Part shown: positions 7,416 through 12,508 of the stretch, piece by piece
Layout: the number at the start of each line of letters is the position of its first letter
Numbering within the stretch: position 1 is the first letter of the stretch
From: an uncultured Actinomycetota bacterium
Lineage (GTDB): Bacteria; Actinomycetota; Actinomycetes; JAHEKZ01
Direction of reading: 5' to 3'
Assembly: GCA_963743915.1 (NCBI GenBank)
Contig: CAVURN010000001.1
Span: forward strand, 862,683-926,682
Length of the DNA: 64,000 nt
Translations under genes and position numbers: made by a program
The notes under the pieces: model-generated
Told to the model about the DNA's origin: nothing
Databases searched by the model: none
The model's input: only the letters and a program-made list of their open reading frames with translations

Positions 7416-8869
7416 ATGAGCGCTGCTCGCTCGACCACCGCCAAGAAGGCCCCGGCCAAGAAGGCGGCCCCGAAGTCCAAGACCACGGCGAAGCCCTCTG
7501 CCAAGAGTGCCGCCACGGCTGCCAAGAAGCCCGGCAAGGCGGCCGTGAAGAAGGCGACGGCCAAGCCGGCGACCAAGAACGCCACCGCAAAGGCGACCGC
7601 CAAGAAGACGGCTGCGAAGAAGCCCGCCAAGGCAGCCGTGAAGAAGGCTCCGGCCAAGGCCGCGTGAAGAAGGCCCCCGCCAAGGCGCCAGTCAAGCAGT
7701 CCGCCGCGAAGAAGGACGAGCCGGCGAAGAAGACGTCCTCCAAGAAGACCGCCGGCAAGGCAGCTGCCACGACAGCCGCCCCGGCGAAGGGTGCCGGAGC
7801 CGGCGAGGCACTGGTCGAGATCCCTGTCGCCGATGACGGTCTGCCGGTCAGTGACGAGGAGATCGCCGAGGAGCTGGCGAAGGAGCCGGAGGAGCAGGGT
7901 TTCGTCATCTCGCACCGCGACGAGTCCGACGAGCCCGTCCAGCAGGTGACCGTCGCCGGCGCCACGGCCGACCCGGTCAAGGACTACCTCAAGCAGATCG
8001 GAAAGGTCGCCCTGCTCAACGCCGAGCAGGAGGTCGAGCTTGCCAAGCGCATCGAGGCCGGACTGTTCGCGGAAGAGAAGCTGAACGGCACCAAGAAGCT
8101 GTCGGCGAAGATGCACCGTGAGCTCGAGTGGATCGCCGAGGACGGTCGTCGCGCCAAGGACCACCTGCTCGAGGCGAACCTTCGCCTGGTCGTCTCGCTG
8201 GCCAAGCGCTACACCGGACGCGGCATGCTCTTCCTCGACCTCATCCAGGAGGGCAACCTCGGCCTGATCCGCGCCGTCGAGAAGTTCGACTACACCAAGG
8301 GCTACAAGTTCTCGACGTACGCGACCTGGTGGATCCGTCAGGCGATCACGCGCGCCATGGCCGACCAGGCCCGCACCATTCGTATCCCGGTGCACATGGT
8401 CGAGGTCATCAACAAGCTCGCCCGTGTCCAGCGCCAGATGCTGCAGGACCTCGGCCGCGAGCCGACGCCCGAGGAGCTCGCCAAGGAGCTCGACATGACG
8501 CCGGAGAAGGTCGTCGAGGTGCAGAAGTACGGCCGCGAGCCGATCTCGCTGCATACGCCTCTCGGCGAGGACGGTGACAGTGAGTTCGGTGACCTCATCG
8601 AGGACTCCGAGGCTGTCGTTCCCGCGGACGCCGTGTCCTTCACGCTGCTTCAGGAGCAGCTGCACGCGGTGCTCGACACGCTGTCGGACCGTGAGGCAGG
8701 CGTGGTGTCGATGCGGTTCGGGCTCACCGACGGACAGCCGAAGACGCTCGACGAGATCGGCAAGGTCTACGGCGTGACTCGTGAGCGCATCCGTCAGATA
8801 GAGAGCAAGACGATGAGCAAGCTCCGTCACCCGAGCCGCTCTCAGGTTCTGCGCGACTATCTGGACTAA
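7416..8869 (+). CDS. sigA: Principal RNA polymerase sigma factor SigA/HrdB with Lys/Ala-rich N-terminus (1-bp frameshift ~7662)
   Basis: [100 protein letters not shown] before ATG 7416. Confidence 0.97.
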
Positions 8870-8871
8870 GG
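8850..8871 (+). repeat. 22-bp direct repeat copy 1 (putative att site), last codons and stop of sigA
   Basis: TGCGCGACTATCTGGACTAAGG, identical at 12487-12508. Confidence 0.9.
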
Positions 8872-8954
8872 AAATTCAGAGAAGACTGTAGAAACCTAGA
8901 CAGAATATGGGCTTTCGACGTTCTCTGGGTTGTGACTTGACGGGCACAGCGCTC

Positions 8955-9392
8955 TCAGTCATCTCCTGGGGTCAGGAGTCCATGTCGACGACGACAGTGC
9001 CGAGCGCGTCTTGGACCTGTGGTCCAAGAGCGAGGCAGCTTCATGGACAGAGGGAGTGAGCCTGCCCACCGAGGAGGGCGGAGCGGTGTACGCCGAGGGC
9101 GGCGTGCCCTTGTGATCACCAACCGCTATGAGCAAGATCCCAAGGTGCGCGAGGCGTGCATCGCGCACCACGGCACAACCTGCACCGTGTGTGGGTTCGA
9201 CTTCGAAGCCGCCTACGGGGAGCGGGAGCCGGATTCATCGAGGTGCACCACCTGGTCCCGCTGTCCGAGCTGGACGGCACCACCGAGGTCGACCCGGTCA
9301 CCAACATGCGACCGCTCTGCAGCAACTGCCACTCGATGATCCATCGCGGCGACCTGATCAGCCCCGACGAGCTCAAGAAGCTCCTGCTCTGA
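8955..9392 (+). pseudogene. McrA-like HNH endonuclease, 5'-truncated and frameshifted
   Basis: Pieces in three frames: GSGVHVDDDSAERVLDLW...YAEGG; NRYEQDPKVREACIAHHGTTCTVCGFDFEAAYGE; GFIEVHHLVPLSE...LCSNCHSMIH. Confidence 0.75.
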
Positions 9393-9411
9393 CCATCCGG
9401 ACGGTGATCGC

Positions 9412-9531
9412 TCACTCCGCTGCACCTGCCAGCCCCACGTCGGTCTGGGCCACGTCCAGGGGCACCACCACGAGCACCCCGCTGAACGTGTCTGTCCCCA
9501 CCAGATACGTGGTTCCGCTGTCGTGCACCAT
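9412..9531 (-). CDS. Possible 39-aa leaderless small protein
   Basis: ATG 9531 preceded at 6 nt by GATACT (-10-like); MVHDSGTTYLVGTDTFSGVLVVVPLDVAQTDVGLAGAAE. Confidence 0.3.
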   Translation of the reverse strand: MVHDSGTTYLVGTDTFSGVLVVVPLDVAQTDVGLAGAAE

Positions 9532-9636
9532 GACCCCAGTATCGCCACGGTGACTGACACCATCGGTAGACCCCGCTGAGCCAGAGGACGTAGGACCCGA
9601 TACACCGCCCCAGATTCGCGGTAGCGAGGTCAACTC

Positions 9637-9665
9637 CCGTAAATCGGACGCCGTCCGATTTACGG
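9637..9665. promoter_or_regulatory. Perfect 29-bp palindrome (14-1-14), candidate operator or hairpin
   Basis: CCGTAAATCGGACG-C-CGTCCGATTTACGG, about 77 bp upstream of the diguanylate cyclase start. Confidence 0.6.
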
Positions 9666-9741
9666 CGACTTGGGTTACCTGCTCGGCGGTACTGCGAGCG
9701 CTAGCGACTGTCGATAGTTGCTGGAGAACGGGGGTTCTCAC

Positions 9742-11160: not shown

Positions 11161-11177
11161 CAGTGGGATCAGAGCAC

Positions 11178-11447
11178 ATGTGGGCGTATGAGTGTCCCGT
11201 CCATTGCCGAAGGGGATGTCACTCCGCGTATCGAGGCTGTGGTGGACCCACCTACGGGCTCGTGTTCGACAAGATCCCGGGTCAAGGCGTGGTCAGTTAC
11301 ACAGTCTGCAAAGCGCACTACGGTCCAGGCATCGTCCGAGTGACCCCCGTTGAACCGTGGTACGACAACAAGCGCATCTATGACCGGCCCGGACCGAAGA
11401 CGTGCGAATGCTCGAACCCGGACGAGTTCGCCCGAGGCCGTTACTGA
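11178..11447 (+). CDS. Small Cys/His-rich hypothetical protein A (89 aa)
   Basis: ECPVHC...C-x22-CKAH...TCEC; starts 17 nt after the cyclase stop; TGATG overlap with the next ORF. Confidence 0.55.
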   Translation: MWAYECPVHCRRGCHSAYRGCGGPTYGLVFDKIPGQGVVSYTVCKAHYGPGIVRVTPVEPWYDNKRIYDRPGPKTCECSNPDEFARGRY

Positions 11448-11899
11448 TGGCCGAGATCGACGACGAGGCCTGCCCCATCCATTGCTCCGGAGGGATCATT
11501 AAATGCCGCCGCCCACCCGTCGCCACAGGCATCGGACCCGGCATTGGTTCAGGCTCCGCTTCTCGCTCTCTATGTGCCAACCACGTGAAGGGATGGTTAC
11601 GCGCCATTCGACGAGGACGGGACTATCGAACGATCTGGGGGTGGCTTTCGTGGCCAGGCTGGCAGGCAAGCGATGAGACGTGGGTTGTCTGGGGGATCAT
11701 CCATTGCGACACCTGCTGCTGCGACCGGTCCAACCTTCCGCTGCTTCGCGGCCCGATCGTGCCATGGGAACGACCCGGCACTCCGTACGAGGGCGTGCGG
11801 CAGGGAAAGATTGAGGTTGGCGTGCTCGGGGACAGGCCTGACGGTAGGCGCGGACTATGCGAGCCGGGAAGAGTGCCCTATCCACCGCCGGTGGGGTGA
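11447..11899 (+). CDS. Small Cys/His-rich hypothetical protein B (paralog of A)
   Basis: ACPIHC...C-x22-CANH...TCCC; ATG overlaps the stop of A. Confidence 0.55.
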   Translation: MAEIDDEACPIHCSGGIIKCRRPPVATGIGPGIGSGSASRSLCANHVKGWLRAIRRGRDYRTIWGWLSWPGWQASDETWVVWGIIHCDTCCCDRSNLPLLRGPIVPWERPGTPYEGVRQGKIEVGVLGDRPDGRRGLCEPGRVPYPPPVG

Positions 11900-12122
11900 A
11901 TGGGGGCGCGTTGGCGCCGCAACGAAAGGGGGGGTGATGCACCGAGAGATGAAGCGCCCCGAGTCCTTCTCCGAGATTGCCGACGATTGGTCGGCGATCT
12001 GTTGGCATATCTCAGGTGTACCTGCCTATCGCCATCCGGTGGGAACGAACTCCGCTACTAAGGAAGAGGAAGCCAGGAAGGCAGGGCGTTCTCCTACCAT
12101 TGCCATCTCAGGCAGACCGTGA
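11857..12122 (+). pseudogene. Degenerate third copy of the CP[VI]H module (start uncertain)
   Basis: ECPIHRRWG at 11871 resembles ECPVHCRRG of A; later ICWH; no clean in-frame start. Confidence 0.3.
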
Positions 12123-12156
12123 CGACCGTACTCACCCACCGACCAGGGGAGATGTC

Positions 12157-12393
12157 ATGAACGACGTGAGCTTGGCGGCGTTGATCTCCGCATGCGGAAC
12201 CGTGGGGGCCTTCATGCTCGTGTACCACCTCGGTAAGCGGGTCGGACGCCGAGAAGAACGAACTGAACGCCACTTGCGCATGGCGAGAGAGGACAAACTC
12301 CAACGACTGCGCGAACTTACCTGGCACCAGGAGCGCGCCTGGCACCAGGAACACGGCCGCTCGTCAACCCCCGATACACCGTGGCGCGACTGA
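12157..12393 (+). CDS. Small single-TM hypothetical protein
   Basis: AGGGGAG RBS; hydrophobic SLAALISACGTVGAFMLVYHLG followed by a charged tail. Confidence 0.55.
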   Translation: MNDVSLAALISACGTVGAFMLVYHLGKRVGRREERTERHLRMAREDKLQRLRELTWHQERAWHQEHGRSSTPDTPWRD

Positions 12394-12410
12394 GCAGCCA
12401 CTGCTCAGTC
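12388..12410 (+). terminator. 10-bp stem-loop over the stop codon of the last island gene
   Basis: GACTGAGCAG-CCA-CTGCTCAGTC. Confidence 0.45.
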
Positions 12411-12486
12411 CAGGATTCTGCACCGCACAGCGCTCGTGACCTGCACGTTTGCCGAGCACGGTCGTACAGCGCTCGGGCGTTTCGAG

Positions 12487-12508
12487 TGCGCGACTATCTG
12501 GACTAAGG
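12487..12508 (+). repeat. 22-bp direct repeat copy 2 (putative att site)
   Basis: TGCGCGACTATCTGGACTAAGG, identical to 8850-8871. Confidence 0.9.

Follow-up and report, generated by a model that had tools for sequence, protein, structure and literature searches.

An integrase-less island behind the principal sigma factor gene of an actinomycete, very probably placed by a phage-type tyrosine integrase

What placed a second copy of the end of a sigma factor gene behind the gene itself, with 3.6 kb of DNA between the two copies? The question is raised by a 64,000-nucleotide stretch of DNA from an uncultured Actinomycetota bacterium (C1:862683-926682 of its draft genome, hereafter the window), in which the 22-mer TGCGCGACTATCTGGACTAAGG is present twice on the + strand as identical copies, at 8850-8871, the end of the principal sigma factor gene sigA, and at 12487-12508. 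The first-pass annotation of the window had taken the copies for the borders of an integrase-less island and the sigA 3' end for a bacterial attachment site (attB). We find it very probable that the DNA between them (8872-12486) is such an island, 3.6 kb long, placed at the sigA 3' end by a tyrosine integrase of the type encoded by Streptomyces phage Kromp. The features that carry this reading, with attL and attR standing for the left and right attachment sites, P and P' for their arms and ORF for open reading frame, are as follows.

7416-8871, + strand: principal sigma factor gene of the sigA/hrdB type (Pfam; ORFs 7377-7667 and 7664-8869)
8850-8871, + strand: core of attL, comprising the (L)RDYLD codons, the stop and 2 bases, identical to 12487-12508
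8872-8963, + strand: P' arm in attL (box located behind the sigA stop; alignment A2)
12404-12486, + strand: P arm of attR (nhmmer; alignments A1 and A3)
12487-12508, + strand: core of attR, in which the sigA end and stop recur as non-coding DNA (exact repeat)

The repeated sigA end and its conserved arms

Both copies lie where the first-pass annotation had placed them, and the 22-mer is otherwise unique in the genome: no third copy was found at up to 2 mismatches in the window, where 0.00 were expected by chance (100 shuffles), or at up to 3 mismatches in the whole genome (2,917,742 bases, 5 contigs). The annotation had also named mis-assembly among the outcomes that would undo its proposal. 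Among assemblies of public sequencing runs, a contig of run X2 bridges attL (8834-8993) and contigs of runs X1 (12423-13245) and X3 (12478-12641) bridge the right junction at 12508/12509, each with 0 differences, and pieces of the DNA in between occur with 0-1 differences in all four runs (X1-X4); X1 may be the source sample, and X2 and X3 belong to other studies. Since contigs of runs from other studies cross both junctions without a difference, the repeat is not a product of assembly. An assembly artefact, or a duplication by chance or homology without site-specific recombination, might be suspected because the genome is a draft in five contigs with one probable 1-base error in sigA itself; the clean junctions from other studies, the chance expectation of 0.00 and the conserved attachment-site arms, known in phages, that flank both copies make this explanation exceedingly improbable.

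The gene that ends in the first copy is a principal sigma factor gene. Its larger ORF (7664-8869) contains Sigma70 regions 1.2, 2, 3 and 4 (Pfam), its N-terminal region is rich in Lys and Ala, and it terminates in LRDYLD and a stop, so that the end of the reading frame is normal and the coding sequence is kept despite the duplicated core. The frame appears to be broken by one base near 7663 (7655-7670); because an X1 contig, otherwise identical over 7600-7871, reads one base more after position 7663, a 1-base error of assembly in the repetitive Lys/Ala-coding stretch is the probable cause. The last 572 bases of sigA found matches of 70-100% identity in 38 of the 41 related genomes, and the core (GCGCGACTAYCTNGAY and the stop) is nearly invariant in most of 30 sigA genes compared. 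The tally of 41 genomes and the census of sigA-end mimics given below take in two unpublished genomes (G025 and G033), on neither of which any claim rests.

A conserved element of about 103 bp (12404-12506; 99.4 bits with an nhmmer model) has the right copy at its end. When the window was compared with 1.5 kb behind sigA in related genomes, three congeneric genomes proved to have approximately 100 bp of it (12403-12506) as well, at 0.7-1.3 kb from their sigA, and each of these copies closes with its own genome's version of the sigA end. A search of the family followed by the nhmmer model yielded, among the loci fetched, 30 distinct full-length copies in 12 of the 20 family genomes. Their boxes follow one order, namely CTCAGTCCAGGATAT, GCACAGCGCT, a variable spacer of ~29 bp, GCACAGCGC, 13 bp and GTGCGCGACTAYCTGGACTRA, and are much better conserved than the spacers (alignment A1, 30 copies); the GTGCGCGACTAYCTGGACTRA stretch varies mainly at the third codon positions of RDYLD-stop. 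In the P arm of the window, the box CTCAGTCCAGGAT (12404-12416) is the right half of the core in inverted orientation, and the repeated boxes are GCACAGCGCT at 12425-12434 and GTACAGCGCT at 12464-12473.

Two other identities were considered for this element and rejected. As a structured RNA it had no Rfam match except a chance microRNA (E 0.47), a fold not above that of shuffled sequences (z = -1.5 as RNA and -0.7 as DNA for the window copy) and no consensus structure. As an attC-like hairpin it reached -4.04 kcal/mol over the 30 copies (RNAalifold), with compensatory change in 2 of 11 predicted pairs. The element is instead kept as sequence boxes, as expected of sites bound by proteins in double-stranded DNA, which we take the boxes to be.

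The left border has an arm of its own. Behind the sigA stop of the window stands a box made of GCACAGCGCT (8944-8953) and CTCAGTCATC (8954-8963), so that the island has an arm at each border in addition to the 22-bp core.

A cognate integrase in phages and full-length elements

In integrase-bearing relatives, the integrase gene stands just behind the counterpart of this left box. In the full-length elements of metagenome contigs L234 (9.4 kb) and L222 (8.4 kb), an integrase ORF starts ~115 bp after the sigA stop (contig positions 241-1143 and 8006-9112, respectively), with a Phage_integrase match in Pfam (1.4e-29 and 5e-16) and an N-terminal SAM-like domain; DUF3631/RepAM and DUF6907 genes are present in both elements, and the 103-bp element closes them. 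Some 75 bp past their sigA stop, just ahead of the integrase gene (int), they have GCACAGCG(C/T)T followed by AGTCCAGATAT, and the P' box adjoins the integrase start both in integrase-bearing relatives and in the phage sites described next.

The L234 integrase has a relative in gp36 of Kromp (MH744420), labelled 'tyrosine integrase' (61% identity, 97% of the L234 protein covered); integrases of a group of Mycobacterium phages are 43% identical. In the 190 bp ahead of the Kromp int, CTCAGTCGAGGATATTGCA is followed by a pair of AAGCATGG boxes, then by GTGCGCGACTATCTCGACTGA, by a hairpin and by GCACGGCGCACTCAGTGGAGATAT, after which int starts, and this region corresponds to attR and attL of the window joined together (alignments A3 and A2). 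In alignment A3, the P arm of the window aligns with attR of L234 and L222 and with the left halves of the phage attachment sites (attP) of Kromp and of IMG/VR contigs; in alignment A2, of which row 'L030x' was disregarded, the P' arm aligns with L234, L222 and the right halves of the same attP sites. SirDuracell, a Mycobacterium phage of the 43% group, was considered as a further phage with the same target and rejected, since no mimic of the sigA end precedes its int and it therefore targets a different site.

The IMG/VR contigs were obtained by scanning for a mimic of the sigA end in which GTG replaces the CTG of sigA. The scan gave 11 contigs, none with sigA; in nine of them an integrase 56-66% identical follows directly after the mimic, one has none, and one locus ends 103 bp past the core. 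Judged by their layout, these loci and the Kromp site are intact attP in phage genomes. The window shares with them the order of boxes around a copy of the sigA/hrdB end and differs in three respects: Kromp has one intact attP with int, whereas in the window the site is split around 3.6 kb of non-phage cargo without an integrase; the repeated box reads GCACAGCGC in the lineage of the window and AAGCATGG in Kromp; and the phage P' arms continue after the stop with a terminator-like hairpin and T's (by eye), whereas no terminator-like site is predicted there in the window. That hairpin is strong, G+C-rich and followed by a run of T's in the phage attP (Kromp L273 2880-2945; L276 and L278-L284), and after integration it would supply sigA with a terminator. 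The element of the window had no blastn match in phage and plasmid collections and the three-box pattern had none in IMG/VR, which is why the link to phages was found only through the integrase protein.

The proposal that the sigA/hrdB 3' end is an attB gains its support from these two sides, because phage attP carry the same boxes, a sigA-end mimic and int, and because the L222 and L234 elements sit at the sigA stop with their integrase. The attP of this family has a fixed order: a core-like box in inverted orientation comes first, then a pair of repeated boxes, the last sigA codons copied with a stop, ~75 bp, a third repeated box and int. Recombination, with strand exchange placed within the sigA-like core, would split it into two sites: attL, consisting of the sigA end and the P' arm, and attR, consisting of the P arm and a second sigA end, with the sigA coding sequence retained. 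In the window, int and the backbone genes would then have been lost, or would never have been present, and unrelated cargo would have come to fill the space between the arms.

The first-pass annotation had seen no recombinase in the window. This stands for the tyrosine (PF00589) and serine (PF00239) classes, since the four PF00589 matches and the one PF00239 match of the genome all lie outside C1:862683-926682; transposases and large serine recombinases were not part of that search. When both integrases, RepAM and a set of three DUF6907 proteins were used as tblastn queries, the window gave no match at E < 1 except one of 56 residues, at chance level, at 40.7 kb. The genome as a whole, which is 90% complete, has no relatives of the integrase other than two Xer-like genes (30-34% identity), and in the family the sole close homologue is a 72%-identical piece at a contig start in G015. 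In none of the 20 genomes of the family is there a PF00589 domain near sigA. Stubs or remnants of an integrase, short in length, were seen behind sigA in G015, G011 and G035, the last from another family, by tblastn, and in G016 and G017 by eye.

Could another recombinase have done the work, either the host Xer proteins or a small serine recombinase? Resolvase-type genes lie 0.2-6 kb from the sigA stop in G015, G006 and G017, the integrase of the elements has an Xer-like build of SAM and catalytic domains, and the two Xer-like genes are the only integrase relatives that the genome of the window possesses. The resolvase genes, however, occur near sigA in only 3 of 20 family genomes, one of them truncated and one a fragment, and the attachment-site layout in phages and full elements always stands beside a tyrosine integrase; we regard this alternative as very improbable. 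The serine recombinases near sigA, which were tried as candidates, were judged to be cargo; they are closely related small genes, some truncated, 0.2-6 kb from the sigA stop (L092 in G015:C26, 2646-3176; L088 in G006:C3, 11590-12300; L093/L094 in G017). A further locus, L219/L249 (5728-9962; Nocardioides-titled), has two adjacent ORFs of 636 and 663 aa with N-termini resembling large serine recombinases by eye and an adjoining ORF of 1082 aa; the two lie inside an element that is closed by the 103-bp element and looks prophage-like by these genes.

The island has direct repeats and attP-like arms and no integrase of its own beside either site. It keeps attL and attR and lacks int, RepAM and DUF6907 (Tra genes were not part of this search); since int and the backbone are absent and the arms are kept, it corresponds to, and is best read as, a cis-mobilizable element (CIME)-like island, att-flanked and integrase-less. 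CIMEs and their tandem accretion are described for ICEs (integrative and conjugative elements) and IMEs (integrative and mobilizable elements) of Firmicutes, with a Streptomyces case cited there, according to passages of PMC5704250. As far as those passages describe them, the CIMEs and ICESt1-related elements of Streptococcus thermophilus likewise use the 3' end of a conserved gene and form tandem arrays through repeated integration at one att site; they differ from the island in phylum, in target gene (here sigA) and in integrase lineage. The gene content of L222 and L234 recalls the actinomycete ICEs (AICEs) of the pMEA300 type, of which, according to PMC3218068, DUF3631 is the RepAM replication initiator; the same paper reports AICEs with tyrosine integrases at tRNA genes, the pSLS subfamily excepted. 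The two full-length elements share with pMEA300/RepAM AICEs the tyrosine integrase and DUF3631/RepAM, the two features compared, and the island of the window has neither Int nor RepAM.

The kind of element is accordingly known, and what is new is its target, an attachment site formed by the last codons of the principal sigma factor gene. This target had been called not commonly described as a hotspot in the first-pass annotation; full-text searches (titles and abstract starts, pSLS-type targets not covered) found no paper that names sigA or hrdB as attB, and for Kromp only an unrelated preprint was found. The site appears to be used by temperate actinophages and small RepAM-type elements across several actinomycete genera. 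Because the core is nearly invariant among sigA genes, a Kromp-type integrase could serve as a broad-host integration tool for Actinomycetes.

Arrays behind sigA in relatives

Beyond the window, the 103-bp element lies downstream of sigA on the same strand whenever both share a contig (G004, G005, G006, G008, G009, G010, G012, G016, L198, L163 and L286). A specific three-box pattern retrieved 42 metagenome contigs, all with a full or near-full match to the model; six of them hold sigA, always upstream on the same strand and 1.0-9.4 kb off, and the other 36 show no sigA. A looser first pattern had given mostly chance hits, 11 of 120 among the matches listed having a model match at E <= 1e-3. 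True copies occur in records titled Nocardioides, Kribbella, Actinotalea fermentans, Nakamurella and Mycobacterium; in seven loci of other genera no consistent gene reads outward from the 5' end of the element, with DUF6907-like small ORFs in some. The GTG-type mimic was found in 18 of 401 genomes of an even class sample (7/20 in the family of the window and 11/381 outside it), with 0 for the reversed control. Three of the 11 outside-family genomes were inspected. In G236, P arms stand at 0.4 and 15.9 kb behind sigA, and the DNA between the two contains no cognate integrase; a chromosomal junction of P arm, core, P' and integrase in G150 is the internal attP expected of tandem integration; and G113 has a P arm with core. 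What the G150 junction documents is accretion in this family, and no more than that; cis-mobilisation of the window's island would be a further step.

The copies form same-strand arrays behind sigA, with integrase-less cassettes numbering up to six or seven. The longest is that of G004:C11, where the full copies number six and a partial one accompanies them at 148.8-161.1 kb, with the sigA end at 147,633; G009:C78 has an array of three, G010:C14 and G008:C43 have arrays of two, and in G014:C295 there are three full copies besides two partial ones. In the G004 array (L086, G004:C11:145500-165000) the spacing is 0.8-3.4 kb, and the cargo genes, whose products mostly look secreted when their N-termini are judged by eye, lie on both strands without an integrase.

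Such arrays invite comparison with integrons. Like these, they have one orientation, one entry point and a ~100-bp end element with mutually inverted ends; unlike them, they have no conserved single-strand hairpin and no IntI-type gene (PF00589) beside the entry, and their cargo lies on both strands. The 103-bp element is half of a classical double-stranded attP, unlike attC. The sigA end could, on this comparison, be the entry of an active integron-like platform where visiting integrases move cassettes in trans, and the window a one-cassette array. The same-orientation arrays (G004:C11 over 13 kb, G009:C78, G014:C295, G010:C14 and G236), the lack of a tyrosine recombinase domain near sigA throughout the 20 family genomes, the conservation of boxes far beyond spacers in the 30 copies and a near-identical duplicate in G010, taken as a duplicated cassette start, speak for it. 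The missing attC-kind hairpin (-4.04 kcal/mol; 2/11 pairs compensatory), the cargo on both strands and the absence of the P' box from most internal junctions speak against it; tandem accretion and decay, as in the ICE/IME/CIME tandems in the passages of PMC5704250, explain the arrays without a new mechanism, and the G010 duplicate is equally given by unequal crossing-over between cores. We therefore hold the active integron-like platform to be quite improbable.

The G010 duplicate itself (L087, G010:C14) consists of 665 bp at 7615-8279, after the second core, that match 2160-2824, after the sigA core, at 99.85% (1 mismatch), and the contig ends there; it could reflect a duplicated cassette start, an unequal crossover or the trace of a circular form. 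In G009:C78 (L018), near-copies of a ~95-bp leader follow both the sigA stop and the core of the first element. This leader is also native behind sigA in G001 and, in another genus, in G018, and one L018 cassette looks as if it begins with host flank, which simple integration schemes do not explain. Two element copies away from sigA were seen in G010:C17 (L090, 388000-399000; 5011-6219), beside IS256-like transposase fragments and downstream of a DnaG-like primase gene (by eye).

There is a small probability that the sigA stop region has the more general role of a gene-capture platform of Actinomycetes. Cassettes without an integrase, each closed by the 103-bp P arm and its sigA-end mimic, would then accumulate in arrays behind an essential and highly conserved gene, and Kromp-type integrases that arrive with phages or plasmid-like elements would shuffle, duplicate or remove them in trans. 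The mimic would have to go on encoding RDYLD and a stop, since every cassette end is a potential sigA end. Such a platform, if real, would parallel the integron but work on double-stranded DNA and be driven by phage integrases. The relatives' arrays are in any case a natural data set on the decay and pile-up of att-flanked islands.

We return to placement of the window's island by a Kromp-type integrase, against which several observations weigh. Pfam recognises no arm-binding N-terminal domain in the integrase, and that Kromp integrates at hrdB is a prediction made from the phage attP. No remnant of int, RepAM or DUF6907 is recognisable in the island by tblastn, and decay from a full element is therefore not demonstrated. 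Neither an excised circle nor a restored attB appears in the X1-X4 contigs, in which no joint across 8872-12508 was found; contigs drop rare forms, so this absence is weak evidence. A precise empty site, in which the sigA core leads directly into 12509 onward, was not found among related genomes either. The comparison with relatives that the first-pass annotation had proposed yielded a sigA without any att arm, in G003, where the gene behind it matches 16820-17650 of the window (74% DNA identity) and not 12509. Finally, the low G+C content persists for ~4 kb beyond attR, to ~17 kb, without a further att site. The A/T-richer interior noted in the first-pass annotation is real (G+C 0.60-0.655 between the repeats vs 0.70-0.76 in the 5-7 kb upstream), yet it is not confined to the island, and since the low G+C runs past the right copy, composition alone does not mark the right border.

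Because the 22-bp cores are exact and the boxes intact, the island may still be open to excision or co-transfer by a cognate element that enters the cell, a prospect that we rate as somewhat less likely than not.

Cargo and neighbouring DNA

The genes between the arms, and a few ORFs of the same interval, are as follows.

9019-9392, + strand: broken HNH endonuclease gene, with an N-terminal part (9019-9339) and an HNH motif part (9156-9392) in different frames
9718-11160, + strand: ORF with a PAS-like and two GGDEF domains (Pfam GGDEF 1.5e-59, 2 stretches)
11070-11447 and 11402-11899, + strand: two overlapping small Cys-rich ORFs with a CPxHC motif in each
11977-12393, + strand: small ORF with a hydrophobic stretch by eye (ORF list)

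The first-pass annotation had described these as orphan genes. The term fits five ORFs that matched no Pfam family (9019-9339, 11070-11447, 11402-11899, 11673-12122 and 11977-12393); it does not fit 9156-9392, a fragment to which the HNH match is confined (PF01844, 9.4e-08), or 9718-11160. The product of the latter is probably a diguanylate cyclase, as its GGDEF and GGEEF motifs, visible in the translation, suggest; the PAS_4 match (9.6e-4) is under its cut-off. The DUF6907 proteins of related elements gave no tblastn match to the Cys-rich ORFs (11070-11899). In the 19 other genomes of the family, no counterparts of the cargo were found beyond GGDEF paralogues elsewhere in G004 (65-70%) and matches of ~55 bases in G015 and G019 (81-87%). 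No tRNA gene was found in the 64-kb window. The insertion puts foreign genes right behind an essential gene, in the window a candidate c-di-GMP synthase with no predicted terminator between, the number of terminator-like sites predicted in 8700-12800 being 0.

The DNA beyond attR (12509-16800) has a G+C content of 0.63-0.68 and may have been accreted earlier, its att site not surviving. Relatives of the genes at 12608-14400 occupy different places in other genomes, and the G001 homologue of 12608-13753 is again preceded by a P arm, there a partial one.

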